Source: Candidatus Heimdallarchaeota archaeon | Lineage (GTDB): Archaea; Asgardarchaeota; Heimdallarchaeia; Heimdallarchaeales; Heimdallarchaeaceae | NCBI GenBank assembly: GCA_030668825.1 | Contig: DAOVET010000001.1 | Location: 32,001 to 96,000 of the forward strand | DNA: 64,000 nucleotides | Direction: 5' to 3' | In this document: in pieces, positions 11,483 through 31,055 of the stretch | How positions within the stretch are numbered: the first letter of the stretch is position 1 | Layout: each line of letters starts with the position of its first letter | The notes under the pieces: generated by a model | What the model was told of the DNA's origin: nothing | Seen by the model: only the letters and a program-made list of their open reading frames with translations | Databases searched by the model: none | Program-made: the position numbers and the translations under genes

Positions 11483-11528
11483 AGAAACAATTATCAGCAA
11501 CAACAGAATCTTGGGAGTAGTGAGCTAA

Positions 11529-12056
11529 GTGTCAAAGAAAACATATCTTACTAACAAAATAGTTCTTATTGGTGACGCAAGAGTGGGAAAAACCTCACTT
11601 GTTCGAAGATTCGTATCAAATATGTTTGATCCATCTTACAAGATTACTTTAGGTACAACAATAATGAAAAAAGTAGTTGATTACCTTTCTTACAATGTGA
11701 CACTAGCGATCTGGGACGTAGGCGGCCAGGAGGTTTTTCGTCAAATAAGAAGCAAATATTTCTTTGGAAGTAAAGGTGCTTTAGCTATTTGTGATGCTTC
11801 CAACCTTGATTCTTTCAAGAATCTTTCTTCCTGGATTGCTTCTTTCAGTAACGAAGTTGGCGATAAACCTATCATTTTTTTAGCCAATAAATGTGATCTT
11901 AAGAATCAAGTTGTTTCTGAAGACCACTTAAAACAACTTGTTCAAGATACTCCTAAATCTGAATTCATGTTTACTTCTGCTAAAGATGGTACTAACACTG
12001 AAAAAGCCTTTATCGACCTCACTCGTCTCATGGTTGCTGAAGAAGATATTATTTAA
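11529..12056 (+). CDS. Rab-like small GTPase, probably chimeric (host 5' half plus island-supplied 3' half)
   Basis: G1 GDARVGKTS, G2 TLG, G3 WDVGGQ, G4 NKCD, G5 SAK; GTG start; no C-terminal prenylation motif. Confidence 0.93.
   Translation: MSKKTYLTNKIVLIGDARVGKTSLVRRFVSNMFDPSYKITLGTTIMKKVVDYLSYNVTLAIWDVGGQEVFRQIRSKYFFGSKGALAICDASNLDSFKNLSSWIASFSNEVGDKPIIFLANKCDLKNQVVSEDHLKQLVQDTPKSEFMFTSAKDGTNTEKAFIDLTRLMVAEEDII
11754..11797 (+). repeat. Left att-like repeat (43/44 identical to 30753-30796)
   Basis: AAATATTTCTTTGGAAG-t/c-AAAGGTGCTTTAGCTATTTGTGATGC is present at both island ends, offset 18,999 bp. Confidence 0.85.
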
Positions 12057-12057
12057 T

Positions 12058-13056
12058 TTATTCATGTTTTACTTTGTTATGCTTTTTTAGATATTCTTCT
12101 AATTTTTCTATTTTCTCTAGAAATCCTCTCTTCTTTTCCTCTTCTCTTTCCTCTCCCCTTAGATAAACATTCGGAAAACTTTCTTTTGTTTCTTTTATTA
12201 TTTTCTCGTATGGTAAATCTACTTCTTCTTCAATATACATTCTTATTTTTCCTGTTAGTGTGTCTAATATTGGTTCCACTTTGTTATAATCCAATACCCA
12301 CTGCAAGTATTTTGCTCTTCTTAAATCTGCTATTATTTCCCTACAGATATTTCTCAGTTTCTTCTTATTTGCTTGTTGTTTTTTCTTTTTCCTATATATC
12401 TCATCTAACATTACTGCTCTTATTATTCTTTCATTTACTATGTGTTCACATTCCCCATATTCTCTTTCACTTAGCGTATCTCCTAAATCATAACAAAAAG
12501 TTAAATCATCCAACATTGAGATAAAGATTATCAATTTCCTTGCAATTACACTTGTTTCATCCTTTACATCCACTCTTTGTTTTAGATTTTCATAAAATTG
12601 AACCAGTGTCCTCAGAATATCTCTTACAGTTTCTTCTTGTTGTTTTTTTTCAAACCTTCTTCCTTCTTTATTAAAATGCTTCAAATATATGCCTACCACA
12701 ATACTAAACAGTATTTCTATTTCTGGATACTTTTGTATAAAATTCCCAGATTGTATTTTCATTTTTACACTGTTAGTTAATTTCTCAATTCTCTTATTAT
12801 AATCGTCTTTCTTCTCTAATCCATATAATTCCAGTAATTCATTCTGAGCATCATTAGAAAGAATTTTTTCTGCTGTTTTAAAAAATTGGAATTCTTGTTC
12901 AATAATTGTAATGAGTTCTAAAAAATCCCAATTAAAATATCCTGTAGAAAAATAATCAATTTTTGTATATTGATGAGATACATTGTACTTTTCATCATTA
13001 ATCATGATAAAATCCAGAAATTCTTGAATTATCTGTGATTCTTGGACTTTGTTCAT
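12058..13056 (-). CDS. Hypothetical helical protein, first gene inside the island's left end
   Basis: 332-aa ORF convergent with the Rab gene (stop codons 1 bp apart); purine-ending codons in the 3' part; no family motif recognised. Confidence 0.7.
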   Translation of the reverse strand: MNKVQESQIIQEFLDFIMINDEKYNVSHQYTKIDYFSTGYFNWDFLELITIIEQEFQFFKTAEKILSNDAQNELLELYGLEKKDDYNKRIEKLTNSVKMKIQSGNFIQKYPEIEILFSIVVGIYLKHFNKEGRRFEKKQQEETVRDILRTLVQFYENLKQRVDVKDETSVIARKLIIFISMLDDLTFCYDLGDTLSEREYGECEHIVNERIIRAVMLDEIYRKKKKQQANKKKLRNICREIIADLRRAKYLQWVLDYNKVEPILDTLTGKIRMYIEEEVDLPYEKIIKETKESFPNVYLRGEEREEEKKRGFLEKIEKLEEYLKKHNKVKHE

Positions 13057-13150
13057 TTTCCTCTTTCCTTGTAATAATATTCATATTCTATAGATTTAAG
13101 CTTTCTGTGGCAAAAAAAGAGTGGAGGAGTGAAAATGACTCACCATTTCT

Positions 13151-13573
13151 TCAATTTAGGAAGTGCCAATTTGTAGTAATCCATTTGAAGAAATCTCGTA
13201 TCTTTGCTTTTTCTGGGAACGAGAAAACTAGATTTAGTGCTTCTATTTTGATTTCATTGATTAACTTTGATAACCAATTCCCACCATCACCTAATGAGTA
13301 TACACCTCTAGTGCTTTCCCATCCTGGAATAATTCTACCTGAAGTTTTCTGTTGTCCAAATCTTATGTTTATTTCTACATCATTTATACGTATATTCCCA
13401 TTCCAATCAATATCAATACGAGAAATACGATTGTTTGCTTGAATTGTACCAAAACTTATCCCATCTGGATAGAGCGAAATTTCTCTTCTTAAATATTGCA
13501 TTGCATCATCACAGTTTCTCTGATAATCTGCTAATATAAGAGCGAAAAGCTTCATCATTTCATCACAATTCAT
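13151..13573 (-). CDS. Hypothetical protein
   Basis: 140-aa ORF with plausible composition and an upstream TATA-like TTTTTATAA. Confidence 0.55.
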   Translation of the reverse strand: MNCDEMMKLFALILADYQRNCDDAMQYLRREISLYPDGISFGTIQANNRISRIDIDWNGNIRINDVEINIRFGQQKTSGRIIPGWESTRGVYSLGDGGNWLSKLINEIKIEALNLVFSFPEKAKIRDFFKWITTNWHFLN

Positions 13574-13628
13574 TCTTTTTAAACAAATAAGTTATAAAAA
13601 ATTATTATCTTAATATAAAGAGGATTTG

Positions 13629-14225
13629 TTAGTCTTTTTGAAAACGATTGTAAATAGGCTTCAAAAGAGGAACAAATAAGAGAAGAGAAAGCATCATAAA
13701 AGAAGTTGAATCTGGATTTGGACGCAGTTCAAACAAAACCAACCATGCCGAACTATGGTCTTCATCTGTCGCTAGTGGTATGTTTTCTGTAAAAGTTAAT
13801 AGGCAACGAACATTACAAGTCCCCCAATTTGAATTATAATTAATAGTTAGGTCTTGTGTAATATAGCTACCAACAGTTGTGAATTCCTCGCTATAGGTTT
13901 TTGTTTCAATGTTACCAATTGTATAAATATCTATAGTTAAACCTATGTTTTTTATTCCTTGTACATTGCTTCCAAGCGCTCCAAGTTCTATAATGATTTT
14001 ACCTTCCGCTTTCTGATTATGATTCAGAGAAACATCATCAAAAGAAGGCTTAATTAAAATCTCTGTCCCACGAGTGGTTGTTACAGTATGTACTTCAAAG
14101 GTAAGCGCAGAAGGATATGAAACAGCTGAGAAAATAAATAGTAAGCCAATGAACAGAATTTTAATCTTTTTATTCAAATGTAATTCACCGCAAATACAAA
14201 GGAAGTAAATATATTTAAAGTGCAC
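13629..14225 (-). CDS. Secreted beta-rich protein with C-terminal membrane anchor
   Basis: Signal-like KKIKILFIGLLFIFSAV (true start probably downstream of the ORF start); C-terminal STSFMMLSLLLFVPLLKPIYNR. Confidence 0.65.
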   Translation of the reverse strand: MHFKYIYFLCICGELHLNKKIKILFIGLLFIFSAVSYPSALTFEVHTVTTTRGTEILIKPSFDDVSLNHNQKAEGKIIIELGALGSNVQGIKNIGLTIDIYTIGNIETKTYSEEFTTVGSYITQDLTINYNSNWGTCNVRCLLTFTENIPLATDEDHSSAWLVLFELRPNPDSTSFMMLSLLLFVPLLKPIYNRFQKD

Positions 14226-14242
14226 TATAAGTTACTTTACAT

Positions 14243-14476
14243 ATGCGAATGAGTAACGAAGGTAAAATCATTTTCAATCACATGGGAATAGAATATAGAG
14301 AATGCATAATAGAACAATGTATGTGGAACGTCAATTGGGAAGAACTACGATTGGCAGAAGAGACAGCGGGAAGACCTCTACCAAAAAAATTCGAGGGAAG
14401 GGTGTGTAATTGTGTTCCAGAGAATCCTATAGGTATTTTAGAAGCTTCTAAAGTACGATGCAATCCAGAAGGTTAA
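14243..14476 (+). CDS. Small cysteine-containing hypothetical protein
   Basis: 77 aa, five Cys (CIIEQC...CNC...C), upstream TATTTAAA. Confidence 0.5.
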   Translation: MRMSNEGKIIFNHMGIEYRECIIEQCMWNVNWEELRLAEETAGRPLPKKFEGRVCNCVPENPIGILEASKVRCNPEG

Positions 14477-14514
14477 AAAGGTTAATTATCAACTGTAGAA
14501 TTCATTTTCTATCT

Positions 14515-14751
14515 TTATATAAAATCTTCTAATCCTAATTGTTTCTTCGGTCTCATAAAATCCTTCAGTTCCTTATCCTTTTGGTCAATGAACCATTGTT
14601 TGATGAGCTTGGTTTCAGGATCAACAACAGACTTAGGTATCCAGATAGGATTATCAACAAAACCATCAATAAGAGCTAGAAAGGCTTTCTCTGTCTCAAT
14701 ATCTACTTTACCTAACTTAAAGTCTGAATACTTACTCCGATTCTCGTCCAT
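14515..14751 (-). CDS. Small virus/plasmid-type protein (ETEKA...WIPKS motif)
   Basis: IETEKAFLAL...IWIPKSVV...IKQWF pattern, which I recall from small mobile-element proteins. Confidence 0.6.
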   Translation of the reverse strand: MDENRSKYSDFKLGKVDIETEKAFLALIDGFVDNPIWIPKSVVDPETKLIKQWFIDQKDKELKDFMRPKKQLGLEDFI

Positions 14752-14905
14752 ATTAAAAAGAAAGAGGAGATTTCAGTTTATAATGATAGAGCAAAGATGT
14801 ATATTAAGTTGGATATTTTTTCTCCTTTTTGCATTTACTTGAATAATCTAAACAAATAACTTTATTGTATTCAATTTCCAATATCTTAGATATTATGGGA
14901 AATTT

Positions 14906-15559
14906 CTATCTCTTGTTTGAATTTTTCTTTCGGATTGCGAAAATCACAGTACATATCAACAAAATGGATAATAGTGGTAATGCAAAAGAAACATTTGTTT
15001 GTTCAGTAGGATAATAGTCAAATTCAATGTAAGTGACATTCATATTACCTGAATTCATCTTTATTAAAGCAGGTAGTTCTAGAGTAGTTATGTTATTTAC
15101 AAAATAACCTGTATTTATTGGTCTCCAGAGAGTATAATTTCCATCCTCGGGTTGAGATAAACCCGATTGATTAATATAAAATTTCACGTAACTATGTTCA
15201 ACAGTGATTCCTGGAGCATAAGAATAGTGCATTATTGTTGCATGAGCTATCATCAATGGATCAATTACCAGTGTTTGGTTACTAAGGGTTGCATTTATGA
15301 AGACTTTAGGATAAAAATCTGATAACTCAACTACTGTTTGATTTTCCTCAGCTCTATTCAGAATTTCTACAGTAACACCGATACCAAATAGAGTAGAATT
15401 TGGTTTATTATATAGATTAGTAATTACAGCAATTTCACTAACTTCTGATACTCTTGAAGCAATAACAGGAAGATTACCAGAAACTGATAAATTGATTGAA
15501 GAAACACATATGTATGCAATTAATATTAAAGTAAGATATTTTCCTAGTGGTTTAATCAT
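14906..15559 (-). CDS. Secreted glycoprotein-like protein with C-terminal TM anchor and basic tail
   Basis: N-terminal signal, several NxS/T sequons, TEQTNVSFALPLLSILLICTVIFAIRKK; SD-like GGAGG upstream. Confidence 0.75.
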   Translation of the reverse strand: MIKPLGKYLTLILIAYICVSSINLSVSGNLPVIASRVSEVSEIAVITNLYNKPNSTLFGIGVTVEILNRAEENQTVVELSDFYPKVFINATLSNQTLVIDPLMIAHATIMHYSYAPGITVEHSYVKFYINQSGLSQPEDGNYTLWRPINTGYFVNNITTLELPALIKMNSGNMNVTYIEFDYYPTEQTNVSFALPLLSILLICTVIFAIRKKNSNKR

Positions 15560-15571
15560 ACTTTTTCCTCC

Positions 15572-15620
15572 ATTTAATCTTTTTAGCAGACGTACCTAAT
15601 TAAAGTTAAGTACGAGGTTT
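15572..15620. terminator. Intergenic hairpin (CGTACCTAA...TTAAGTACG), possible terminator
   Basis: Imperfect inverted repeat just downstream of the S8 peptidase stop codon. Confidence 0.3.
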
Positions 15621-15628
15621 AATAATTC

Positions 15629-16825
15629 TTACCTTGCTAGTCTCCCCTCCGTATATGCCTTTCCAAATGCTAAATAAGCATCTATATATCCATATCCAAA
15701 TTTTTGATCAAAAGTGCTTCGCGAACTAGCATAGTATAAGATATCCAAAACTTTCTGGAGAGAAGGGTCAGTAGAAGAACCTATTCCATTGTGATAAGCT
15801 GTTATTATCAAAGCAATTGTTGCAGCCAAATAGGGAGTACTAAAACTGGTTCCAGCTCCATATTTCCAAATACCTCTATAGATTCCAAGTGATTGATCAT
15901 AATATGCATCCGTTAATATAGGTATACCATTCCCTGGTTCTACCCAGTTTACAATATGATTACCTGTAGTATAAGATTTATACCAAGATGAAAACCAGGA
16001 TTTATGATGTATCCATGAGTCGCTTCGATCTTCATGATCTATTGAACCAACAGCATACCACTCAGAGTAATATGATTGATACATGTAATTATAACCCCAA
16101 CGGTAATTAAGATAATTGTAATAGTTACCAGCTGCTGTAAGTAACATCACATTTTTAGTAATCAAACTTGCCCATTTTTGATGGATTGTTGTATCTTCAG
16201 TAAAATCAATTCTTGAGACCCAAGACCATGAAACTATATCGATATCCTTTGATGCTTGATTATCATCTATCCATTCCCAAATTTCATATTGTCCATAAGT
16301 AAATCCATAGGGATCATATAACTCTTCCTCTTCATTTTCCACATATAAATCGATAAAAATGACTTTTACATCTCTGGCGATGGAAGCTAGTACAGATATA
16401 ACTGCAAATCCATGTCCATGAAACACTTGATTGTCTAGAAATGGATCATTAGGATTAGTAATGAATTTTATTTCATTATAACATCTGAAATCGTTTGTTA
16501 AGAACCCAACAATATCCACATTCGCTTCAGGATTTTGTTCTAAAGCTTTCCATTCCAAATCAGTTAAACCATCATCAATTATTACGACAGTAACATAATC
16601 ATCTATAGTAACTCCATGCTCATACACAATTACATCTGTTTCTGTATACTTATATGCTGCATCTTGAAGATTTCCAACTTTTACTGCTGGATTTATAACA
16701 GGATCACCAATTGCTCCGCATTTTAACCAATCTAACATTTTGAGTTGATTATTACACATATCAGGTAAAGGTGCCAATCCAATACATACTATCAAGCAAA
16801 AGGAAAGAATTTTTTCATATTTCAT
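15629..16825 (-). CDS. Secreted S8 (subtilisin-like) serine peptidase
   Basis: Catalytic triad VIIDDG, HGHG, GTSFSTP; oxyanion AAGN; C-terminal FGYGYIDA; signal peptide. Confidence 0.88.
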   Translation of the reverse strand: MKYEKILSFCLIVCIGLAPLPDMCNNQLKMLDWLKCGAIGDPVINPAVKVGNLQDAAYKYTETDVIVYEHGVTIDDYVTVVIIDDGLTDLEWKALEQNPEANVDIVGFLTNDFRCYNEIKFITNPNDPFLDNQVFHGHGFAVISVLASIARDVKVIFIDLYVENEEEELYDPYGFTYGQYEIWEWIDDNQASKDIDIVSWSWVSRIDFTEDTTIHQKWASLITKNVMLLTAAGNYYNYLNYRWGYNYMYQSYYSEWYAVGSIDHEDRSDSWIHHKSWFSSWYKSYTTGNHIVNWVEPGNGIPILTDAYYDQSLGIYRGIWKYGAGTSFSTPYLAATIALIITAYHNGIGSSTDPSLQKVLDILYYASSRSTFDQKFGYGYIDAYLAFGKAYTEGRLAR

Positions 16826-17044
16826 TATTCTTGACTCCTAGATAGTAATTTTATCAAATTCTAGATCCTCTTGTTTCCTTAAAAACCTGTCTTATTTTCA
16901 GATGCTGCAAATGTGTCGTAAATTTCCAATATTCTTTCTTTCATTTCTTTCAATGTTGTTTTTACCACCTTTATAAATCAAACTCCTGATAATAGTTCAC
17001 CTACACTCCTTGTTTTACATCCCACTGAAAGTAAAAAAGGATAG

Positions 17045-17599
17045 TTGGTGAAAGAAGTGGGTAAGAACATGTATACAAGATTAAAAGAAGAAGTAAAGAA
17101 ATATCTCTCCTCTTTTAAAAGGTTTCAAGAAGAACTACAATCATTTAAAGAATTTAGAAGAAGTATTGATTTACCATCAGAGATGACAATAGATCTATCG
17201 GAAACTAAGGACCAGATGGAAGCTATTAGAAGATATGAAGCAAGATTACAGAAAGGAAAAGATGATCCAACTTGGTTTACTCTCACTAAGATGGTTACTG
17301 ATGTTTTTTTCGAGATGAAAAAAGAGTTTGAGGTATTCATGCAAGAACCTCAGTTTCTAGAAGGTAGAAAGTGTAAAAATCTAGTTGATTTAACTACTTA
17401 TGTAGTTGGAGAATTACAAGAACTAGAAGTTAAGCTTTACTCCAAACACATGGATGAAGTAGATTGTTCTGTTTGTAACCAAAGTCATCTTATTCTTGAT
17501 GAGAATAGAGCAGAACAGACATGTAAAAACTGTGGCATAGTAATTAGAGATAAGATATCCGAAGAGGAAATTAGTCTTAAATCACAACCTTTTTTCTGA
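17045..17599 (+). CDS. Coiled-coil protein with a C-terminal TFIIB-type zinc ribbon
   Basis: CSVCNQSHLILDENRAEQTCKNCGIVIRD matches the TFIIB/TFB ribbon CxxC...D...E..C..CG.V..D. Confidence 0.75.
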   Translation: MVKEVGKNMYTRLKEEVKKYLSSFKRFQEELQSFKEFRRSIDLPSEMTIDLSETKDQMEAIRRYEARLQKGKDDPTWFTLTKMVTDVFFEMKKEFEVFMQEPQFLEGRKCKNLVDLTTYVVGELQELEVKLYSKHMDEVDCSVCNQSHLILDENRAEQTCKNCGIVIRDKISEEEISLKSQPFF

Positions 17600-17663
17600 T
17601 AAAAACTTAAAAAGGATAAGGATAAATTCTACTAATCTTAATTATTACTTAAATAACGAATAT

Positions 17664-18242
17664 TTGGATGGAAAAATAATGACTATTGATGGTTATGATT
17701 TACAGGATGGTTTTACTAGAAATTATCATTCCTTTCAATTGACAGGAGAGCATACAAATACTACTTGGACACATAGAATCCTCGGTTACTTTGATAGACT
17801 GGGGAGAATGCTAGGATACGAAGTACAATTTGAAAAAGAAATATATGATTTAACTTGGTGGGATTATTCAATTAATCAAGAAAAAGGGAAGATTATTCTC
17901 CATGTCGAACATGAAAATTCAACAAATAAGAATAAGATAATCGAAGAAACTTTAGAATACAAAATTCTAGATTCTGAAGCAAAAATAGCTCTTGCTATCT
18001 GTTATCCTAATAATTCTCAAGATTTTGATGAAATTAAACTTTGGATTAAAAAGAATGTTAAAAAACGAATGAAAGCAGAAGAAGTAGCCATCATAGTAGA
18101 TGGTTGTTGTTATGGAGAAGAACCATATCATTTTGCAGTTCACATGATTACGAAAAAGAAATCAGAACTATACCTTTATGACAAAATAACAGTAAATGAA
18201 TATCATTGCTTAGAGTATAAGACAGAAGAAAATTACGCGTGA
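17664..18242 (+). CDS. PD-(D/E)XK-superfamily nuclease-like protein
   Basis: LGYEVQFEKEIYDLTWW...ILHVEHEN...K: a D...ExE(N) variant active-site pattern. Confidence 0.6.
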   Translation: MDGKIMTIDGYDLQDGFTRNYHSFQLTGEHTNTTWTHRILGYFDRLGRMLGYEVQFEKEIYDLTWWDYSINQEKGKIILHVEHENSTNKNKIIEETLEYKILDSEAKIALAICYPNNSQDFDEIKLWIKKNVKKRMKAEEVAIIVDGCCYGEEPYHFAVHMITKKKSELYLYDKITVNEYHCLEYKTEENYA

Positions 18243-18271
18243 TGGACGTATCGTGTAAAATTGTGAATTAT

Positions 18272-18502
18272 TCATTGATTTTGTATTCTCGCTTTTATTT
18301 TTTTTGTTTCTTCTTCAGATAAAATCTTATCTCTCTTCCCTAAACTACATTCTTTGCATGTTGTTGCTAGATTGTCTAGTGAATGTTCTTTTACTATTGA
18401 CCAAGGTATAATATGGTCAACTTGTAATTCAACTTCTGGAGCTGAACGACCACAAATTATACAAGAAAAATTATCTCGTTGTAGAACCTCAAATCTCAAA
18501 CT
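18272..18502 (-). pseudogene. HNH endonuclease domain, probably 5'-truncated
   Basis: LRFEVLQRDNFSCIICG...LQVDHIIP...NLATTCKECSLGK. Begins immediately after the stop of the upstream gene, and the usual final Asn (CN..K) is Ser. Confidence 0.7.
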
Positions 18503-19126
18503 TTAAGGAATTGAACTTTCATCATCTTTTTTGATTTTTGCTGTAAATACAAAACCCCCTAAACATACAAAGAAAATTCCAAATGTTAAGAGAAAAGCAC
18601 CAATAACCATCCACCACCATTCTAAGTCAAAAACTAATATCCATAATCCAACAATAGAAGAATATAGTAAGTTCAAGTAAGTACGTCCTCTGAATATCAA
18701 TCTGCAAAACAATTCCTTTCCATTCTTTGGAATACTATAACCTAGAATATATTTCCTGATTTCTTCATTATCAAATCCTTTTATTTGTAATCGAACAAAA
18801 TGCAGAAGCACGTATTCTTTCATCTCTTCGTACATAGTTGTAAGATTAAAATAATTGCACCCAATAACAAAGATTCCAATAAAAATTACAAAACCAATCC
18901 GTAGATAAGGTTCATCATTTTGTGTTGAAGGAAAATCGATCTGAATGTAACTTGAACCAAAATACGCTCCTAATGAAATTATTGCTAACAATGATGGGAA
19001 TACAGAAATAAATCTAAACTTTTGAGAATTTAGGAATTTAATTCTATTAAGAATCTGTTCATGAAGAGTCAGAAGTTGTTCTTGTGGAATATCATCGTTT
19101 TCTTTCTTATCATCTTTTTTTGTCAT
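18503..19126 (-). CDS. Membrane protein (about 4 TM helices)
   Basis: Two pairs of hydrophobic segments. Confidence 0.7.
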   Translation of the reverse strand: MTKKDDKKENDDIPQEQLLTLHEQILNRIKFLNSQKFRFISVFPSLLAIISLGAYFGSSYIQIDFPSTQNDEPYLRIGFVIFIGIFVIGCNYFNLTTMYEEMKEYVLLHFVRLQIKGFDNEEIRKYILGYSIPKNGKELFCRLIFRGRTYLNLLYSSIVGLWILVFDLEWWWMVIGAFLLTFGIFFVCLGGFVFTAKIKKDDESSIP

Positions 19127-19338
19127 TTTCTTTCATCGTAAACAGATAAATAGCACATATTTAAATCCCGATGTTTTTTTCACTAAATATAATAGATGTA
19201 AGAATTTTAATTTTTTTTCAATTTTCGGTATGTTTCTGATACTATACACTCCAATAATTCGTCAAAAACTACTTTTTATACTCAAATTTAAATAGAATAA
19301 AAAATAATTAAGATTGCTTTGAGTAATTCGTATATAAG

Positions 19339-19884
19339 TTGGGAAAAATCATGAATAACACTTCAAATAACAAAAGTGATGAACAACTACAATATGAATT
19401 AAAAAAACTAATAGACAAGTATAATAAATTCAAGAGAGACAAAGGTCGTTCAGGTTTAAATAAATTGAATGAAGCAGAAGTAAGAAAAGACTTCATTGAT
19501 CCTTTCTTTGCAATTCTTGGGTGGAATATTCATGATTCCTCAGAGTATGGTACTGAAGAACATATCAAAGGTGTAGGAAGAGCAGATATCATATTAAGAG
19601 ATTCCAAGCTTATTTCCACAAAACCTCAAAGTCTTGTTTATGTTGAAGCAAAACGGTTTGGTATTCTTCATTCTAAACCACTTGATACTAAACAAGTTGA
19701 TCTTTTGGGAAAATTTGTTCCTGATTGGACAGAAGAAGATAGACAAGCAACTAATTATGCAATGGCAAAAAACATAAGATGGGCAAGAATTAATGGAATA
19801 TATCCTATTGTTGTCAGTCAAGAAATCAACAATCAGATAATGGGTAAAATAACATTTGAAATTATTGCACATTCAGATATTTAA
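19339..19884 (+). pseudogene. HsdR_N-like restriction endonuclease N-terminal domain, truncated (type I/IIG R-M remnant)
   Basis: NEAEVRKDFIDPFFAILGW, GRADIIL, VEAKR, QATNYA..IRWA. The sequence then departs from the expected W.ILTN and stops; no methyltransferase follows. Confidence 0.75.
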
Positions 19885-19910
19885 TATTTTGTTAATTAGG
19901 TTCAGAAAAT

Positions 19911-22849: not shown

Positions 22850-22951
22850 ATCTTTTTTTCATCTTTCTACTCATCTCTGCAGGATGTGTTTCTTCTATTA
22901 TTATCACCATCCACATGACGAAAAATACTGTCAAATATCCCATTATCTCTA

Positions 22952-23266
22952 TCAACTTATCCCCTCCACTAACAGCTCCCCTATTGTCCTCTCTGTCATC
23001 TCAAAGAAGCTCATTATCCCCTCACTCTCATGGATCAGTTCATGTAGTTTCTTTAGTTTCACTTCCCTTCCCAGATTATCCTCGAAAGCTATCTCATAAC
23101 TCCATGCTCTCTTCTCCCTCTCTTCTATCATCCACTCCTTCTGTTCTTCAAAGAAGTTCTTCAGGAAGAATTGTAATCCATATACTGTCGTTATCTTCTG
23201 TCTTGTTAGTTCTATCCTTCCCTCTTTCCCTTCTACATAGATTACAAAGACCATATTCCAGTTCAT
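22952..23266 (-). CDS. Hypothetical protein
   Basis: 104-aa ORF with the same skewed codon usage as 22478-22849. Confidence 0.6.
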   Translation of the reverse strand: MNWNMVFVIYVEGKEGRIELTRQKITTVYGLQFFLKNFFEEQKEWMIEEREKRAWSYEIAFEDNLGREVKLKKLHELIHESEGIMSFFEMTERTIGELLVEGIS

Positions 23267-23349
23267 TTTGCTCTATTTTGCTTATCAGAACTTTGGTTTA
23301 TAAAGTAGGGAAAGTTTTTTTCTCGAGTTTTTAAATCAATTTACAGATT

Positions 23350-23432
23350 AGTGGTTGAAGCTGGCACAAACCCTTGAAATTCATATATCTAAAAAATATA
23401 ACTCATCACACTTTAGCTGGCTTCGACCCACT
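23350..23432 (+). other. Long imperfect inverted repeat with G-U pairs (structured RNA or ssDNA hairpin)
   Basis: AGTGGTTGAAGCTGGC (23350-23365) pairs with GCTGGCTTCGACCCACT (23416-23432): 16 pairs including 3 G-U and one bulged C, followed by a pyrimidine run. Confidence 0.55.
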
Positions 23433-23665
23433 CTTTTCTTCTCTCAATCTCCTTCATCAGTTACTTATGGAAGCAAAATTAAAAATCTGGGTTTTAGATT
23501 GATAAAATAGAGAAAATTAGTGAATTTTTCAACCTTCCTCTCAAACACCTGAAAAAAATAGACTTCTAACTTATCTCACATTTAGTATTTCTATATCCTT
23601 ATTTTATTTCGATAGAGGAAAATCAAAAATGCAAAAATCAAACAAACTATTCTTGTTCAAGTATA

Positions 23666-25333
23666 CTATCTTCTTCTTTTAGAACTAAATCGGGAATAAC
23701 CAAATACAATTAGTGGGATTAGTACAATTAAAGAAAGAAACGAGTAGTAAATATTATTATTCCTATAAACTGGAGGTTCAGAAAGAGGATAAAGATCTTG
23801 TGCATTTGCAAATCCATCAATATAATAGCTACCAACTACCACAAAATAGTCTGACCAATAATTTCCTTCCTCATTTTCTTCATCATACCAGAGATTATCT
23901 CCATCATCTCTCGCTTGGGAAGTACCGTAATACTGGTTGTTATTGTAAAAGGAATTATGGTGAACAAGATTGTTGACTGAATCTTCATCTAAAAATACTC
24001 CCCAAAAATAATTATTAGTTAAAGTATTGTAAGTAATAGAGATATTTGATGAGTTTTCAAGCACTAACCCATGATTATTATTGCTTAAAATATTATTTTC
24101 GATTAATGAATTACTTGTTTGCACAAGTAGAATCCCTTGTTTTTTATTGAAACTACAGTTATTGTTCATGATGGTTATTCTATCACTAAATTTAACATGT
24201 ATTCCTATTAATGTTTGATCCAAGACTTGATTTTTTATCATGAATTCAGAGCAATTGGAAATAAATAGCTGACCATAGATTGGTTTTGTTATTTTCAAAT
24301 TATTTTGGTTTGTAAAATAACCGTACTCTTTTCCATTTATCATATTGTTGTACACTGTGTAAGTATGATAATCTGCTGGATTTAATTCGTAAAAATAATA
24401 GTCACACTCTGTTAATGTATTCCCAATAAATTCAGAAAATTCTGAATCCCTTACATATATACCATTAGACTCGGTAGTAATTTCATTATTTATAACAGAG
24501 ACATTTCCACTATATACTACTGTTAATCCTATTCCTCCTCCAAAACAGTAATTGTCTGTTACTACAGAATCATTTGAATGAGATAATCGAATGTTAAACT
24601 GAACATTATTGAAACAAGAGTTATTTGCAACTAAAGCTGCTCTAGATGTATGAAGATATATCCCTCCTAAATAAGAATTGTTATGAAGAGAATTGCTAAC
24701 AACGGTAGCGAAGAAACTGCTACCAAGAAGTAATCCTCCTTTGAAATTATCTGAAATATTATTACCATAGATATAACTAGAATTACAATTATTAAGGAAA
24801 ATACCTCCTTCATTACTCTTTGTACATGTATTATTTACGATTCTAATATTTGGTGAAAATATTACATGGATACCATAGCGTAAACCTTCATTACATGTAT
24901 TTTTGATGAGCTCTATACCTTCTGCTTTACTGATCTCCATCCCAGATTTTTGATAATTCTGACACAAATTTTCCTTAATTTTGATACTGTTAGGTGCTAC
25001 ATTTAGAATATAGATACTGTAGTTATCACCATCCAGAAAACAATTTTGGATCAGGAAGCATTTGGTAGTATAAGATATTGATATACACGCTTCTTCGGTT
25101 GTAGTAATGTTAAGATTCTCTATACGGTAAGGATCTACAGCTGTTCCTTCTCCTGGTAAGCTGTAAAGAGAGATATTGGTATCAGATTGTATGACAATAG
25201 GTATCGAGATTATATATGAATTAGAATTTAAATTTCCACTATCTGTGGTAGCTGTAGTAATTTCTATACTCCAACTTTTCATTAGAATTAAACTGAAACA
25301 CACCACTACTAGTAACCCTTTCTGATATTTCAT
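23666..25333 (-). CDS. Cell-surface right-handed parallel beta-helix (NosD/CASH) protein with C-terminal TM anchor
   Basis: GEGTAVDPYRIENLNI, repeated NN..GI.L, GNYWSDY, DLYPL, TM plus KRRR. Confidence 0.88.
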   Translation of the reverse strand: MKYQKGLLVVVCFSLILMKSWSIEITTATTDSGNLNSNSYIISIPIVIQSDTNISLYSLPGEGTAVDPYRIENLNITTTEEACISISYTTKCFLIQNCFLDGDNYSIYILNVAPNSIKIKENLCQNYQKSGMEISKAEGIELIKNTCNEGLRYGIHVIFSPNIRIVNNTCTKSNEGGIFLNNCNSSYIYGNNISDNFKGGLLLGSSFFATVVSNSLHNNSYLGGIYLHTSRAALVANNSCFNNVQFNIRLSHSNDSVVTDNYCFGGGIGLTVVYSGNVSVINNEITTESNGIYVRDSEFSEFIGNTLTECDYYFYELNPADYHTYTVYNNMINGKEYGYFTNQNNLKITKPIYGQLFISNCSEFMIKNQVLDQTLIGIHVKFSDRITIMNNNCSFNKKQGILLVQTSNSLIENNILSNNNHGLVLENSSNISITYNTLTNNYFWGVFLDEDSVNNLVHHNSFYNNNQYYGTSQARDDGDNLWYDEENEEGNYWSDYFVVVGSYYIDGFANAQDLYPLSEPPVYRNNNIYYSFLSLIVLIPLIVFGYSRFSSKRRR

Positions 25334-25387
25334 TTTATCACTCTTGTTTTATCTTCTAAATCTCACTTATTCACAATTTATTCTGAA

Positions 25388-27109
25388 TTATCTCAATTTC
25401 TTTTCTTGATTATTGAATCTTTTTTTCCTAATTGTTATTTGGAAATAACCATAAATCATCAGAGGAATAATAACAGCAAACGAGAAAAAAGCATAGTAAA
25501 TATTCTTATTTCTATAAACTGGGTGTTCAGAAAGAGGATAAGGATCTACAACACCAGCAAAACCGTCTATACTGTAGTTTCCAACTCCTGAATAGTCTTC
25601 CCAGTAGTTCCCCTCCTCTTTTTTCTCATCATACCAGAGATTATCTCCATCATCTTTTGCTTGGGATGTACCATAGAAGTTGTTGTTTATGAAAACGTTA
25701 TGGTGTATTGAGTTATTAGCAGAACCACCACCTAATACCACTCCCCATAATCCGCTATTTGTTATCACATTGTATGTGATCTCATTGTATGAGGATTGCT
25801 CTAATAAGATTCCATACAACCCATTATATTCTGAAGTGTTGTTAATTATATTCACTCGTTCAGATTTAAATAAATAGACTCCACTTCTGCTATTAAACTT
25901 GAAAACTGATTTTGAAATAGATATGTCCTCGCAATAATATAGACTTACTCCTGTAGAAAAACTACTTATCAACTGGTTCTTAATTTTGATGTTATTACAA
26001 TTTACAAGATGTAACTGATTAAAGATTGCTTCTGAAAGAGTAAGGTCATTTTCATCAACAAAATACCCGAAAAGTTTGTCATTAACGTAATTGGAAGTTA
26101 CGTAGTACTTCCTGAAATCTTCCACAGTTGATTCGTATATTCTAAACCCACAATCATAAAGCATATTATTGCTGATTATTGAGTATTCCGCATCCTTTAG
26201 ATATATACCTGTATTACTCCCTGCACAGATATTGTCAGAAACAGTCACGTTACCGCCTAAAACAACAATAATCCCATATATTTCACCAGAACAAATGTTT
26301 CTTGTTACTAAAGAGAAATTTGAGCTGTGGATATCTAAATTAGGTTGCCGATTATTATAACAGATATTATCAGAAACTGTCGATGTATAACACCTAAGTA
26401 ATCTTATCCCTCCATGTAAATCATTTAAGTAACAGCGATTATGCATAATAAGAGAATTCGTACAATCATCCAACACAATCCCTCCTTTTTTATTCTCATA
26501 ACAAGTATTGTTTTTAACTATGCTTTCAGAACTTTTATCTATAAACATCCCGACCCAGCTGTTATCAAAACAAGTATTAAGCTCGATTTGACAATTTGGT
26601 GAATCTTTGATATGTATACCAAAATAGCTATTTGAGTAACAGGTGTTATTAATTATCAGTGAGTTTGATGAATTATAAATACGAATTCCTCGTATAGAAT
26701 TACCAATACAAATGTTGTTTTCAATTTTTGCAGTTTCATTTTTAACTGATTCTATTACAATACCATTTACAGATGCGTTTACAAAACAATTTTGAATTAG
26801 AAAGTGTTTAGTTGTATTGTAAACATAAATTCCCCTTTCTTTTGTTGTAGTTATATTGAGATTTTCAATTATGAAAGGATTTACAGCTGTTCCATCACCT
26901 AGAAATCCATAATCTGTGAAATTAGAGTCATTTGTAATAACGATTGGTAATGAGTCAATATAGGAAAGAAAAGGTTGATAAGCTTCTTTAGAAGGAAATC
27001 TATAACATGTATTCTGAAATTCAGTTTCTTTAGATTCTACTGAGGTAAACATTGACAGTAACAAAATACAAAAAATTGTAACTGTTACATTCTTTCTCAT
27101 ATAACCCAT
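25388..27109 (-). CDS. Cell-surface right-handed parallel beta-helix (NosD/CASH) protein, tandem paralog
   Basis: GDGTAVNPFIIENLNI, beta-helix repeats, GNYWEDY, DPYPL, TM plus basic tail; colinear with 23666-25333. Confidence 0.88.
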   Translation of the reverse strand: MGYMRKNVTVTIFCILLLSMFTSVESKETEFQNTCYRFPSKEAYQPFLSYIDSLPIVITNDSNFTDYGFLGDGTAVNPFIIENLNITTTKERGIYVYNTTKHFLIQNCFVNASVNGIVIESVKNETAKIENNICIGNSIRGIRIYNSSNSLIINNTCYSNSYFGIHIKDSPNCQIELNTCFDNSWVGMFIDKSSESIVKNNTCYENKKGGIVLDDCTNSLIMHNRCYLNDLHGGIRLLRCYTSTVSDNICYNNRQPNLDIHSSNFSLVTRNICSGEIYGIIVVLGGNVTVSDNICAGSNTGIYLKDAEYSIISNNMLYDCGFRIYESTVEDFRKYYVTSNYVNDKLFGYFVDENDLTLSEAIFNQLHLVNCNNIKIKNQLISSFSTGVSLYYCEDISISKSVFKFNSRSGVYLFKSERVNIINNTSEYNGLYGILLEQSSYNEITYNVITNSGLWGVVLGGGSANNSIHHNVFINNNFYGTSQAKDDGDNLWYDEKKEEGNYWEDYSGVGNYSIDGFAGVVDPYPLSEHPVYRNKNIYYAFFSFAVIIPLMIYGYFQITIRKKRFNNQEKKLR

Positions 27110-27273
27110 GCAAAATCCTCTTCACTCAAAATAAGGCAGATATTAATTTTTAAAGATTTTGACTGCATTTTAATTAATTTCCTTTTTCGAATACTATTAT
27201 AAGTGTTTAAGATATATTATTCTAGATAAAAAGACGGTTCAAACATATAGAAGACTTATCTAAAGGTGAAAGA

Positions 27274-28725
27274 TTGAAAACCAAATTCAAAGTGGCTATA
27301 ATTGCCGGAGCAATAATAGGGCTCGTAAGTATAACTATCCCTACTGTTTTTTTTCTAATACAACCTCCAGAGATAACCAATGGTAATAATGACAATAAGA
27401 GTATTGATAATGTTATTTACCCAAATCCGCTTTTTTACCGAGGAACAATTTCAGATATGATGCTTGAAAGTGACGACAGAGTACAGTTTATTGTAGGTAG
27501 CTATAATGCCACCTATGTCACCTATCCTCATTCACCTGCTTATATAATTTTAGATCACAAAAATCAAACGTGTACATATAAAGAGATGTTCCCAGGAATT
27601 ACTTCAGGAAATATGCATCAACTAAAAATAGGTTTAGGTCCAAATAATGAGTCAATTGCTTATAATTTTTTTACCAATCCTTTCGGTTATCTAGTGGCAT
27701 ACTTGTACAAAACAAATACTCTTGGGAGATGGATATTCTATCCTGCACTTTCTGATAAACCCATGCCTTACGGTGGTTTTAATAGGAGAAGTGTGTATAA
27801 CTGGAATTTTATGCCTTCAGGAAAAATAAATCTCGCTTTCTTATATCAAGGAACTTATAATACACCTGCAATCTATAATGAAACAACAGATAGTTTTTTC
27901 TTCTTGAGCGATGTTTTTGAGGAAATTAAAGATCAAGTAATTCTTAACAGGTATGGAGACTTTGCAGTTGTAGATTCAAATATTTTCTACTTTTGGTCAG
28001 AATATATAAATGAGTACAACTTTCATCCTTATCTAGCTATTAAATGGCAGGGAGAAGGATGGCAACTAACAAGAATAGGAAATGAATCAGAAACATATAT
28101 GCCCATCAGTATTATTCCTCAGAAAAATGTAGTGAATATTTTTTATCATGATTCTGGTAAAAGCAGTTTGAATAGTAGACTCTATCACACCCAGATTTAT
28201 AATTCTACTAGTAATACTACAACACTTCTACACCAATTTGATGGGAGAACTGTTTTTCGTCAAGATTCTGTATGTGCTCTCTCTCAAAATGAGTATGTGT
28301 TCTTGTATACTAAAGGGTCGTATGTACTAAATGCACAAAGAGATCTGTTTATGGGTTATTATGATGGTAAAGAATTCTATGAATTTATGCTTACAGATAC
28401 TCCACAACTTCTTGAACATCGAGCACATTGTGAATTAGGGGAGAATTACATTCATTTGGCTTGGGAAACTAGTATAGACAAAGGAACTGGAATCTATGAC
28501 CCAATGCAGACTAATCTTTTCTATAATAGAATATCCTTAAAGGAAATAAGACTGTCAAAAGAAACTGTTATAATACCATCAATGATAACCATAAAGAATG
28601 AAAACCATAGAACAAAGCTCTTTAACGATTGGACTTTCTTAAAACTTACTATCTATATTGCTCTGTCCATCAAAATCCTTTTTTTTCCAGTAAAATTCTT
28701 GTGTGAGATACAGGGATTCTTATGA
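27274..28725 (+). CDS. Membrane-anchored extracellular beta-rich (possibly propeller) protein
   Basis: N-terminal TM, aromatic beta-strand repeats (IHLAWE, LFYNR); SD-like AGGTGA before a TTG start. Confidence 0.6.
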   Translation: MKTKFKVAIIAGAIIGLVSITIPTVFFLIQPPEITNGNNDNKSIDNVIYPNPLFYRGTISDMMLESDDRVQFIVGSYNATYVTYPHSPAYIILDHKNQTCTYKEMFPGITSGNMHQLKIGLGPNNESIAYNFFTNPFGYLVAYLYKTNTLGRWIFYPALSDKPMPYGGFNRRSVYNWNFMPSGKINLAFLYQGTYNTPAIYNETTDSFFFLSDVFEEIKDQVILNRYGDFAVVDSNIFYFWSEYINEYNFHPYLAIKWQGEGWQLTRIGNESETYMPISIIPQKNVVNIFYHDSGKSSLNSRLYHTQIYNSTSNTTTLLHQFDGRTVFRQDSVCALSQNEYVFLYTKGSYVLNAQRDLFMGYYDGKEFYEFMLTDTPQLLEHRAHCELGENYIHLAWETSIDKGTGIYDPMQTNLFYNRISLKEIRLSKETVIIPSMITIKNENHRTKLFNDWTFLKLTIYIALSIKILFFPVKFLCEIQGFL

Positions 28726-30417
28726 AATTATTATTGTTTTCATTAAATTGGTTTGAACTAAGAAATATTCAGGGTCTGTATTGTCGTTATAACAAGTGAG
28801 CACAAAATTAATTGTAGAATCTACAATAAATGAAGTGTTGAGAAAACCTCTAATTTGATAATTACCTGATTTTTGGAGCACAAAAGAGTAACCTCGTGAT
28901 CTATTTAAGATTAAGTATTCCAATTGCGGTTCTTCTGCAATGATTTCAATATAACTAAATAATCTAAATGTGTCAAATAACAAATTATTGTCACTATCTA
29001 TAACTATAGAATCGACTCTAATAATATCTGCACGCATAAAATCTGGAACATTGTGGTAAATATATTGGAAATTAATTTCCATTACAAAAGTAGAATTTTC
29101 ATATAATTCTACTTCTTTAATCGTTATTGATGAATTACTAGACCAATTCATACCATAAGCATCAGCAATTTCAAAGTTGTTGACAGTCCAACCATCACAA
29201 ACTTCTTCTCCTTGGATGATCAAATTACTAGGAAGCCCTAGAACTAAAATTATTAGAATAAAGGAGATTGCTTTTTCAATTTTTATCTTTTTGGAATAAT
29301 TAATTGGAACGATTTTATCCACTTCTTTAACAATCTTATCCTCTTCTTCAGTCTGATCAGTTTTTTTTCTCATTTTTAGTTTATGTATTAGAAATAGCAA
29401 ACTCGAAGATAGTATCAATGGAATTATAAATAATAAAAGAACCATAATAAAACCTGCTAGAAATTCGCTTGAAATTGCAGAAATGTCCAAATTGAGATAT
29501 GATTCTAGAATAAGGGATAAGAGTAAATTGTGAAATAACAAATCGCTCCAGAAAAATATTGTAAACAAGGTTATAGCTATAAAAAATATACTAGCTATCG
29601 AAAGTGAAATAATTTTAATTTTTCGTGATTTTGCTATTAAAGGTTCCTTAATCTTGCTTTGTAGTTTTGAAAGTATTAAAAAGATCCCACTTGTCACAAA
29701 AATATAAGCTAAGTAGATACCCAAAGGACCAACTTTTCCAGTAATAGGTAAAGTAAAAAGACAAGCAGAACCGAACATTCCAACTAAGCTAAAAGTATAA
29801 ATCCCATAGAATGGAATAAATGCAATTGTTTGATCAACTAGTTCTTCTTTACTATTTGTCCCCTTATGTTCACTTGAGCTCCTTGTTTTTTTCGTAGAAA
29901 TAATTAAGATCACCCCTTTTAGAAACAACAATAAAGGAGTAATAAATATTAAGAACAAGAAAAGAACATTCAAATTATTAGTATAACTATTTGCTCCACC
30001 AAGAAACATTATAGCTCCCCCTGCCCCATGAGACGAGTATTGTATGTGAGCTATTAGTCTTACTAGCTCATCTATATGATATATTGCGAAAAAAACACTA
30101 AATAATCCCACTTTTCTTGGGTAGAGTCTAGAGAGAAGGAAACCAGTGAGTACAAGAATTGCACTTAATATATAATTGGCTAAAGTGTTTTTTTCATTTG
30201 AAATATATGCGTCTATCTCGACCCAATTATATTCTATTGTTCCATTAGCTGAAGATATATCCTGAATTTGAATCGTTTGATCATATAGTGTTAACTTTGA
30301 TACTCTTATAGTTGCAATAAGTATAAAACCAACAATTATCAAAACAGAGAGTATTAAAACAATATAATCCCAACATTTATTCTTGGAAATGTAAAAATGC
30401 ATTCTTGTTTTCCTCAT
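28720..30417 (-). CDS. Polytopic membrane protein with a C-terminal extracellular domain
   Basis: About 9 hydrophobic segments, then a soluble beta-rich tail. Confidence 0.7.
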   Translation of the reverse strand: MRKTRMHFYISKNKCWDYIVLILSVLIIVGFILIATIRVSKLTLYDQTIQIQDISSANGTIEYNWVEIDAYISNEKNTLANYILSAILVLTGFLLSRLYPRKVGLFSVFFAIYHIDELVRLIAHIQYSSHGAGGAIMFLGGANSYTNNLNVLFLFLIFITPLLLFLKGVILIISTKKTRSSSEHKGTNSKEELVDQTIAFIPFYGIYTFSLVGMFGSACLFTLPITGKVGPLGIYLAYIFVTSGIFLILSKLQSKIKEPLIAKSRKIKIISLSIASIFFIAITLFTIFFWSDLLFHNLLLSLILESYLNLDISAISSEFLAGFIMVLLLFIIPLILSSSLLFLIHKLKMRKKTDQTEEEDKIVKEVDKIVPINYSKKIKIEKAISFILIILVLGLPSNLIIQGEEVCDGWTVNNFEIADAYGMNWSSNSSITIKEVELYENSTFVMEINFQYIYHNVPDFMRADIIRVDSIVIDSDNNLLFDTFRLFSYIEIIAEEPQLEYLILNRSRGYSFVLQKSGNYQIRGFLNTSFIVDSTINFVLTCYNDNTDPEYFLVQTNLMKTIIIS

Positions 30418-30585
30418 TCTTGATTAGATGTTATAAGTACAAACGCGCTCTTAAAAATTCTTTGGAACATTGCTATAGCGCAAAACATAGAATCCATTTT
30501 ATCATTCTCGCCCTTCAAATTATCATAAAACTAGTGGAGTAGCAATGATATATGAAATTCTATCTTTTTACAAGTAATATAAATT

Positions 30586-30712
30586 GACACCGGTGGACAG
30601 GGGATGTTTACCTATCTCCGTCCCAAATACTACTCTTGACATCCCTGTTATCATCTGCGGTAACAAATTTGACCTTAACGAAGCTCGTACTCTTGATAAA
30701 GATACTATTTAA
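30586..30712 (+). pseudogene. Relic of a second, different Rab-like GTPase 3' half (G3 and G4 motifs, internal deletion)
   Basis: Manual translation: DTGGQGMFTYLRPKYYS* (30586-30639), then in another frame DIPVIICGNKFDLNEARTLDKDTI* (30638-30712). Confidence 0.8.
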
Positions 30713-30725
30713 ATTATATTCGTCT

Positions 30726-31055
30726 CAAGAAGTTTTCAGACAAATCAGAAGTAAATATTTCTTTGGAAGCAAAGGTGCTTTAGCTATTTGTGATGCCTCT
30801 AATTCTGAATCTTTTAAGAATATCCCCTCGTGGGTTGAATCTTTTAAAAAGGAAGTGGGAGATAAGCCTATCATTTTTCTAGCAAATAAATGTGATTTGA
30901 AGGATCAACAAGTCACTGAGGATGACATGAAACAATTGGTTAAGGATTACAGTAACACTGAATATCTGTATTCCTCTGCAAAAGATGGAACAAATGCTGA
31001 AAAAGCTTTCATCAACTTAACCAGACTTATGGTTGCTGAAGAAGATATAGTATAG
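30726..31055 (+). pseudogene. Displaced 3' half of the Rab-like GTPase at 11529
   Basis: QEVFRQIRSKYFFGSKGALAICDASN...NKCD...SAK...AEEDIV: 109 aa, colinear and 84/109 identical (hand count) to 11727-12056; no G1/G2 upstream. Confidence 0.92.
30753..30796 (+). repeat. Right att-like repeat
   Basis: 43/44 identical to 11754-11797. Confidence 0.85.

Follow-up and report, generated by a model that had tools for sequence, protein, structure and literature searches.

The question raised by this locus is why an intact Rab-like GTPase gene should be followed, 19 kb downstream, by a second copy of its own 3' half that has no beginning. The DNA analyzed here (the window) is a stretch of 64,000 nucleotides, positions 32001–96000 of contig 20 of a Candidatus Heimdallarchaeota genome, G000 (2.76 Mb, 138 contigs, 90.6% complete). 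The gene in question, RabA (11529–12056, plus strand), encodes a 175-aa Ras/Rab-family GTPase in an intact frame (Pfam Ras, E 6.5e-37), and motifs G1–G5 are readable in its translation. Comparison with sister species demonstrates that the DNA between the two copies is an island inserted into RabA, and that the 3' half now fused to the gene came with it.

The chimeric gene and its displaced 3' half

The last 109 codons of RabA are repeated at 30726–31055. A first-pass annotation of the window had described this recurrence, with 84 of 109 amino acids identical, the first 26 residues identical, a 44-bp core with one mismatch, and an offset of 18,999 bp, and all these values are confirmed (repeat family D1); nucleotide identity over the 109 codons is 75.8%. 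The homology starts abruptly on the left, at a Gln codon, and ends on the right with the stop codon. The downstream fragment is the closest relative of RabA in G000 (74% amino acid identity, E 6e-54), the next paralog among the 20 matches listed being 39–40% identical, and the similarity of the two copies is far beyond chance. The fragment covers positions 58–160 only of the Pfam Ras profile, without G1 and G2, and sits in an open reading frame (ORF) at 30636–31055, the first 30 codons of which are unrelated.

The RabA protein was searched in 40 relatives; an ortholog is present in 22 of 24 genomes of the same genus, and 20 loci were retrieved, with the window proteins mapped onto them. The locus is readable on both sides in 17 genomes, 15 being island-free and two, G000 and G024, occupied. 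The Rab gene of the 15 island-free congeners stands beside a DUF2122 nuclease gene, which bears out the earlier proposal that the interval in the window is an insertion.

Over its first 186 nt, RabA shares 94.1% identity with its G013, G012, and G009 orthologs, within the range of the flanks (93–95%). From Gln67 onward, the intact gene shows 75.5–77.6% nucleotide identity to the clade orthologs and to G001, and lower identity to others. For the downstream fragment (the orphan), the corresponding identities are 98.2% with G009, 93.9% with G012, and 92.4% with G013. Synonymous divergence (dS) is ~1.5 between the two window copies and 0.05 between the orphan and the G009 gene. The tree of 3' halves places that of the intact gene on a long branch outside the clade and joins the orphan to G009 (support 0.948); in separate trees of the halves, the right copy thus clusters with the host orthologs and the left 3' half does not, the opposite of the pattern that the first-pass annotation had tied to simple duplication. 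The foreign half shows dS 1.3–1.5 and a ratio of nonsynonymous to synonymous divergence (dN/dS) of 0.10–0.12 against the resident types, and is therefore an old, selected GTPase half, not a decaying copy.

The exchange of the half carrying G4 and G5, claimed previously, is confirmed. As read from the sequence, the cell keeps an intact but chimeric GTPase, with a resident P-loop and switch I joined to a foreign switch II, G4, G5, and C-terminal helices. Orphans compared with intact orthologs and with each other have dN/dS of 0.04–0.23, the same range as in intact–intact comparisons; these low values would fit any of three readings: recent displacement, separate entry in each species, or orphans being kept intact.

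Empty and occupied sites at two Rab-like genes

In the island-free congeners (G013, G001, G016, G004, G021, G012, G019, G020, G007, G008, G005, G017, G002, G022, and G011) the gene order at the RabA locus is helicase, 781-aa protein, memo-like protein, Rab, DUF2122 nuclease, 164-aa protein, second Rab, and GatE. The gap between Rab and DUF2122 is 0–65 bp in 12 of the 15, 0.95 kb in G020, 1.3 kb in G001, and 2.06 kb in G012. The G001 spacer contains one secreted-protein ORF and a Rab C-terminal remnant of 21–25 codons (L022, 10526–11825), and the G001 site has probably also been hit once. The G012 gap contains a solute-binding (transporter) gene also found in the window (SBP_bac_5; 31240–33060, plus strand), where it lies between the orphan and DUF2122; among the 15 island-free loci, only that of G012 has this gene in place. 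The short interval 3' of Rab has therefore taken up other DNA as well.

Other insertions are seen at the same interval. A 274–276-aa secreted protein is encoded between the Rab stop and DUF2122 in G020 (L031, 10574–11527) and on G012 contig C94 (L037, 475–1430), and 5.3 kb of repeat-rich ORFs occupy this place on G012 contig C11 (L038, 475–5733). The G012 bin holds three copies of the locus (contigs C163, C94, and C11) and probably mixes two species, since two of the copies are 76–77% identical to the window gene and start at contig ends.

The second occupied RabA site, in G024, consists of an intact RabA followed by an 85%-identical homolog of the gene at 12058–13056 in the window and then by the contig end; the orphan adjoins DUF2122 on a separate contig. 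This orphan starts at Trp62, five codons before that of the window, and has on its left a zinc-ribbon membrane protein gene like one in an island of G013. Both the junction and the right end differ from those of the window. The 3' half of the intact G024 gene is a mosaic, with a host-like middle and the last ~90 nt near-identical to G000.

A solo TnpB/Cas12f-like gene (418 aa; 10148–11404, minus strand) lies between the memo-like gene and RabA. A 96%-identical TnpB is found at the same place in G009, and none there in G013, G012, and G024. This is a separate IS200/605-type insertion beside the hot spot; as the agent of the island it was rejected, since G009 has the same TnpB in place with a resident-type Rab gene.

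Insertion recurs at a second gene, the Rab paralog RabB, whose 195-aa product is ~35% identical to that of RabA. The RabB site is empty in G012, G009, G010, and G006 (order: CDC48, 283-aa protein, RabB, CBS protein) and occupied in G013 (9.4 kb), G024 (2.4 kb, two membrane-protein genes), and G018 (on two contigs). The G013 island comprises a 520-aa protein, three paralogous membrane proteins, a zinc-ribbon membrane protein, and a subtilase, and then the orphan RabB 3' half. G016 has a RabB orphan only, G004 an intact RabB with a helical-protein gene at a contig start, and RabB of G000 is cut by a contig end. The RabB orphans are 97.5–98% identical in amino acids to the G012 and G009 genes, the intact G013 gene 85–86%; here too the orphans are of the resident type, and the swap runs in the same direction as at RabA.

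Two gene families usually accompany these events. The zinc-ribbon/helical protein encoded at 12058–13056, next to the RabA stop, belongs to a family present in 5 of 25 genomes of the genus, and its homologs lie beside Rab genes in G024, G013, G016, G004, and metagenome contigs; in G013 the gene adjoins RabB, not RabA. The second family is that of the 520-aa protein. A foreign 3' half is linked to the two families in G000, G024, G013, the contigs of a G016-like organism, and G004. Three of these metagenome contigs carry two modules in tandem, in the order RabB 3' part, helical-protein gene, 520-family gene cut at residue 154, and then an orphan from residue 93; on contigs L068 and L070 this orphan is in turn accompanied downstream by a helical-protein gene and a 520-family remnant of its own. 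The homologs of one island protein in sister genomes have Heimdallarchaeota and Asgard group as source names.

A PF00071 screen of six genomes gives internal partial matches only for RabA and RabB, out of ~30 Ras-family genes per genome. No such matches, except one at a contig end, are seen in five more members of the genus, and none is among the 150 matches listed for five genomes of four other genera.

Junctions and contents of the island

At nucleotide level, all junctions fall within the codons of the G3 motif, WDxGGQ. The sequence TGGG/ATACAGG (slash, boundary) is read in intact, empty, and orphan forms of RabB, with ATACAGG as the start of the orphans; on the right of this 7-nt block, foreign sequence follows in the intact genes and resident sequence in the orphans. 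The RabA orphan of G024 keeps CTGGG/AT, with the shared block CTGGGA (6 nt). RabA of the window is foreign from Asp63: the codons Asp63–Gly66 differ from the clade at 5 of 12 nt, versus 11 of 186 upstream, and match the intact gene of G024. At both genes, the foreign halves use other Gly-Gly-Gln codons than the resident types. The crossover had been assigned either to the border between the Gly-Gly and Gln codons or to the 44-bp core, and neither position holds, the intact gene being foreign already at Asp63.

The window orphan is host-like from its first base but starts only at Gln67. Directly before it lies a decayed 3' fragment of RabB type, matched by tblastn to RabB residues 74–94 (76%) and 123–146 (87.5%). 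The interval 30634–30730 is 82–85% identical in nucleotides to island-type RabB 3' halves versus 71–72% to resident types; the first ~50 nt of the fragment are closer to the resident types, on small numbers. The fragment joins the RabA orphan directly at a shared 9 nt, AAGAAGTTT. This microhomology at the fusion implies that the RabA orphan lost its first codons in a later deletion that joined the two orphans, and its Gln67 start is thus a secondary boundary. Since a RabB-type orphan lies inside the RabA locus, the locus was hit at least twice, one event bringing a RabB-type half into RabA.

Excision was checked over 11300–31250 in the assembled contigs of four public runs (four studies), contigs being prone to drop rare forms. 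The island is present in all four, and no joint of ~11.7 kb to ~30.7 kb is among those listed for their contigs; the suggested toggling of two alleles by integration and excision therefore remains conjecture. In run X10, one contig differs at four positions within 11738–11750, just past the junction, and breaks off ~50–60 nt later, which may reflect either strain variation or the collapse of a related allele at the repeat.

The features of the island are listed in Table 1. Its G+C content is 0.28–0.32 versus 0.32–0.36 in the flanks, its largest ORF is 781 aa, and the only tRNA gene of the window, tRNA-His (33694–33768), lies outside it. The statement of the first-pass annotation that only accessory or truncated genes lie between the Rab copies is roughly right, except that the two recurring families are also there (12058–13056 and 13151–13573). 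The window copy is degenerate, as both of these conserved genes are truncated, and probably no longer moves as a unit. What had been described as a single mobile element is the degenerate product of at least two insertions, not one clean element, and contains no known recombinase.

The block 26612–30516 recurs at 90–97% nucleotide identity on three contigs of G018, whose RabA has a resident-type 3' half abutting DUF2122. One of these copies, on contig C257 (L072), is 97% identical to 28350–29610, an interval that comprises the gene of the 565-aa membrane protein and a remnant of its neighbor, and stands beside eRF1-like, M50 peptidase, and rubrerythrin genes. This cargo block, found among housekeeping genes, therefore moves independently of Rab genes. 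The interval 17664–22256 forms a defense-like cluster inside the island (HNH, membrane protein, restriction-enzyme fragment, and OLD nuclease), in which no partner helicase is seen. A 50–52%-identical copy of the NosD/beta-helix protein adjoins a full-length, 725-aa member of the 520-aa family on G000 contig C45.

Table 1. Features of the RabA locus in the window, from the start of RabA to the end of the orphan.
Feature	Position	Strand	Evidence and remarks
Resident 5' part of RabA	11529–11714	+	codons 1–62: P-loop, switch I, up to Trp of WDxGGQ
Foreign replacement 3' part of RabA	11715–12056	+	codons 63–175 and stop: G3 Gln, switch II, G4 NKCD, G5 SAK
Zinc-ribbon/helical family protein, 332 aa	12058–13056	-	no Pfam match; small Asgard-only family
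140-aa C-terminal remnant of the 520-aa family	13151–13573	-	89% identical to residues 384–520 of the 520-aa protein of the G013 island
Predicted membrane/secreted proteins	13629–14225, 14906–15559	-	no Pfam family
Subtilase	15629–16825	-	Peptidase_S8, E 4e-10; a subtilase also in the G013 island
TFIIB-type zinc ribbon protein	17045–17599	+	cargo
Protein without assigned family	17664–18242	+	cargo
HNH endonuclease, 75 aa	18272–18499	-	HNH, E 1.2e-11
Membrane protein	18503–19126	-	cargo
N-terminal restriction-enzyme fragment	19339–19884	+	PADLOC type IIG REase model
OLD-family ATPase/TOPRIM nuclease	19911–22256	-	Pfam OLD-like TOPRIM, AAA_21, AAA_15; PADLOC Old, AriA, GajA models
Small membrane protein	22478–22849	-	cargo
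Two paralogous NosD/right-handed beta-helix surface proteins, in tandem	23666–25333, 25388–27109	-	direct repeats D2, D3, 70–81% nucleotide identity
483-aa membrane protein	27274–28725	+	cargo
565-aa membrane protein	28720–30417	-	cargo
Decayed RabB-type orphan 3' fragment	30586–30725	+	140 nt; starts at Asp of DTGGQ; internal deletion, stop codons
Displaced resident RabA 3' half (orphan)	30726–31055	+	codons 67–175 and stop; no start, G1, or G2; no internal stop

In full-length relatives of the helical protein, a helical domain is combined with a double zinc ribbon (DZR) at the N terminus, and the latter is detected in a 419-aa form. The AlphaFold model of the helical protein is all-helical (mean pLDDT 72.7). 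A complex prediction for the GTPase and the adjacent helical protein gives a score of 0.00, which counts neither for nor against binding. The 520-aa family spans 520 to ~900 aa; full-length forms have 725–906 aa, some of them within giant ORFs. The long forms have no Pfam match, and for this family a PDB sequence profile search and the ESM Atlas gave nothing usable; the model of the 725-aa member is too poor for a fold search (mean pLDDT 47.1). The extra N-terminal part of the long forms has a GFDD...E-x-K motif, which may resemble the PD-(D/E)xK nuclease motif. Members of this family are also seen inside open frames of 2,979 aa (G008:C25:6733–8937) and 4,635 aa (G041:C38:203799–205934), which recall the giant genes of Heimdallarchaeum aloposons.

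A provirus was considered and rejected: ten proteins compared with PHROGs gave one match, to a family without assigned function (in the zinc-ribbon part), there is no capsid, terminase, or portal, and no relative of the helical protein is found in IMG/VR contigs.

Possible modes of entry and related systems

Taken as a whole, the locus is read here, with moderate confidence, as the site-specific insertion of a gene-restoring island into the G3 codons of RabA. On this reading, the interval 11715–30725 is horizontally acquired DNA inserted into the Trp-Asp-x-Gly-Gly-Gln codons of a resident Rab-like gene. A foreign functional 3' part at the left end of the island continues the reading frame of the resident 5' part, and the 3' part native to the gene now lies 19 kb downstream as an orphan. 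The island family is found in one Heimdall-group genus, in several species of which it occupies the same few codons of two Rab paralogs, with the usual order Rab 3' half, zinc-ribbon/helical gene, 520-family gene, and variable cargo (surface proteins, subtilase, defense genes). In the window, an earlier insertion left the RabB-type orphan, and a later microhomology deletion fused it to the resident RabA orphan. The comparisons show the insertion, the direction of the swap, the recurrence at two genes, and the serial insertion. The enzyme might be of an unrecognized kind, act in trans, or have been lost. Site-specific entry is favored by junctions that agree to within ~6 nt, at the outermost left edge of the homology, and by targets (~35% identity) too different for homologous recombination; the mechanism is inferred, and the main rival is recombinational displacement of cassettes. 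A further-reaching version, which we consider tentative and rather doubtful, is that an unrecognized kind of island, without a known integrase or transposase, recognizes the DNA of the near-universal G3 motif and moves between Rab paralogs, swapping the C-terminal two thirds together with a linked partner gene, the orphans being kept as reusable halves.

Several observations weigh against site-specific entry. In the window island, where ORFs of at least 60 aa were scanned with Pfam, PHROGs, and PADLOC, there is no tyrosine or serine recombinase, DDE or HUH transposase, Tn7 gene, or Cas1, and scans of the G013 island and of the metagenome tandem array gave no recombinase or transposase. PF00589, the tyrosine recombinase family and the one recombinase family searched genome-wide, has no match (E <= 0.01) in G000, nor in G013, G004, and G016; this family is detected in 13 of 25 genomes of the genus, and even a Xer-type recombinase goes undetected in many. 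The two conserved linked genes show no sign of encoding a recombinase: for the helical protein, Foldseek retrieves nothing from the PDB at E <= 0.001 (only designed helical repeats), and all islands seen have the 520-aa family in 5'-truncated form. Full-length members of this family were considered as the missing enzyme and rejected, none being near a Rab gene in the eight loci examined. The gene beside the stop of the intact Rab gene varies between islands. A shared identical core at both window junctions is not demonstrable, the right one having been destroyed by the deletion, and the shared block at the other junctions (RabA of G024, RabB) is only 6–7 nt. The RabB islands of G013, G024, and G018 have a common right end and may thus represent one event, not three; no right-end sequence common to all islands was found.

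The principal alternative, which we think unlikely, is a recombinational cassette displacement similar to that of Rhs/CdiA loci: a Rab 3' half and its linked genes would form a co-adapted module that arrives from another lineage and recombines via the conserved 5' half or G3, displacing the older module downstream as an orphan, so that orphan arrays accumulate with no need for an integrase. The lack of a recombinase in any island agrees with this, as do the linkage of foreign halves to the same two families in all the cases named above, the tandem arrays in which an orphan retains its own copies of the linked genes, the mosaic 3' half of the intact G024 gene, and the position of a conserved motif at the border of constant and variable parts. 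However, an illegitimate right-hand join does not predict that orphans start within ~6 nt of each other in separate cases and in two paralogs; resident RabB sequence is kept on both sides without loss, the signature of a single reciprocal insertion; a RabB-type half has entered RabA, at a protein identity too low for homologous recombination; and the cargo is large and unrelated to GTPase function.

Homing-like spread, in which a nuclease from some of the islands or from a gene elsewhere (HNH at 18272–18499, OLD, or a full-length 520-family protein) would cut the empty G3 site, with repair from the occupied allele using the 5' half and the orphan as arms and protection by the recoded G3, is improbable. 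The window island does contain nucleases, the Gly-Gly-Gln codons of the foreign halves do differ from those of the resident types at both genes, and intact host-like orphans with low dN/dS would be useful as homology arms; yet the RabB islands of G013 and G024 have no recognizable nuclease, donor and recipient chromosomes would have to meet in one cell, of which there is no known case in these organisms, and both the first insertion and the RabB-type half in RabA are left unexplained. Least weight, practically none, is given to local tandem or segmental duplication of the Rab gene with 5' decay of one copy and a build-up of unrelated genes between the two. The expansion of small GTPase families (31 PF00071 matches in G000) speaks for it, but no relative has two full copies at this place, 15 having one gene and no island; the dS of ~1.5 between the copies stands against 0.05 between the orphan and the G009 gene; and the intact gene is a chimera whose halves have different histories. 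On these comparisons, duplication followed by 5' decay is excluded.

Gene-restoring integrative elements are known from tRNA- and tmRNA-targeting islands and from e14 and phage 21 in the icd gene of Escherichia coli. As in e14, phage 21, and tRNA islands, the island at RabA is absent from relatives, the direct repeat is the 3' part of the target, the element copy is fused and the resident copy displaced, and the homology runs from the crossover to the gene end. Unlike in those, no integrase is found here, the target is a Ras-superfamily GTPase gene, two paralogs are used, 113 of 175 codons are replaced with 23% of the amino acids different, and no exact core can be demonstrated in the window. 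SGI1-type islands, which encode a tyrosine integrase, reportedly enter the bacterial GTPase gene trmE at its 3' end, within the last few codons; the attachment site is likewise inside a GTPase gene, although here it is the mid-gene G3 motif of a Rab-like GTPase and no integrase is found. Rhs and CdiA loci have constant N-terminal and variable C-terminal toxin parts, with orphan C-terminal modules accompanied by immunity genes. The split at a conserved motif, the displaced C-terminal fragments kept downstream with a neighbor gene, and the serial arrays are similar; unlike there, the variable part is the G4/G5 half of a GTPase, the adjacent protein belongs to no toxin, immunity, or PADLOC family, and the cargo reaches 19 kb.

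In 'Ca. Heimdallarchaeota', a Tn7-like element is reported that interrupts a methylase gene and brings another methylase, 75% identical, as a whole replacement gene; it has Tn7 genes, is TniQ-directed, and produces a target-site duplication (10.1101/2025.07.27.667033). Both elements enter a protein-coding gene and supply a replacement for what is disrupted, whereas the island ORFs scanned here contain no TnsA, TnsB, TnsC, or TniQ, and only a 3' part is supplied, fused in frame. Also unlike in Tn7-like transposons, the repeat is 330 nt of a diverged gene, not a short exact duplication. The integrated elements of Atabeyarchaeia and the aloposons and HeimV of Heimdallarchaeum are described as either encoding tyrosine integrases that go with short att motifs or using tRNA genes as integration sites, and one Atabeyarchaeia region carries Arf-type GTPases as cargo (PMC11529989, PMC8813620); aloposons are described there as having tandem giant genes (3,000–6,000 aa) and as integrating at tRNA genes (PMC8813620). 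Like those elements, the island is Asgard mobile DNA; unlike in them, the GTPase is the target and not a whole cargo gene, and the giant Otus/Ephialtes genes are absent from the window island. No element targeting a Rab-like gene is described in the open papers and preprints searched, supplementary tables, which possibly list integration sites, lying outside the search. The islands thus act like classical gene-restoring elements but lack the integrase of these, and have the orphan-array look of Rhs/CdiA loci without the toxin logic.

Ras/Rab-like GTPases are signature 'eukaryotic' proteins of Asgard archaea, and the back part of a Rab protein faces regulators and effectors. At the loci analyzed, foreign DNA repeatedly rewrites Rab-like genes in place, the nucleotide-binding front being kept and the back part replaced (about one residue in four differs). 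This provides a concrete route for horizontal exchange and mosaic evolution of Asgard GTPases, bearing on how these families expanded and diversified, and points to the G3-motif codons as the target of an activity, recombination or insertion, for which no known enzyme family was found. If the islands are indeed of an unrecognized kind, they would be a means by which domains are swapped in nature, and trafficking GTPases of eukaryotic type diversified, in the archaea most closely related to eukaryotes.

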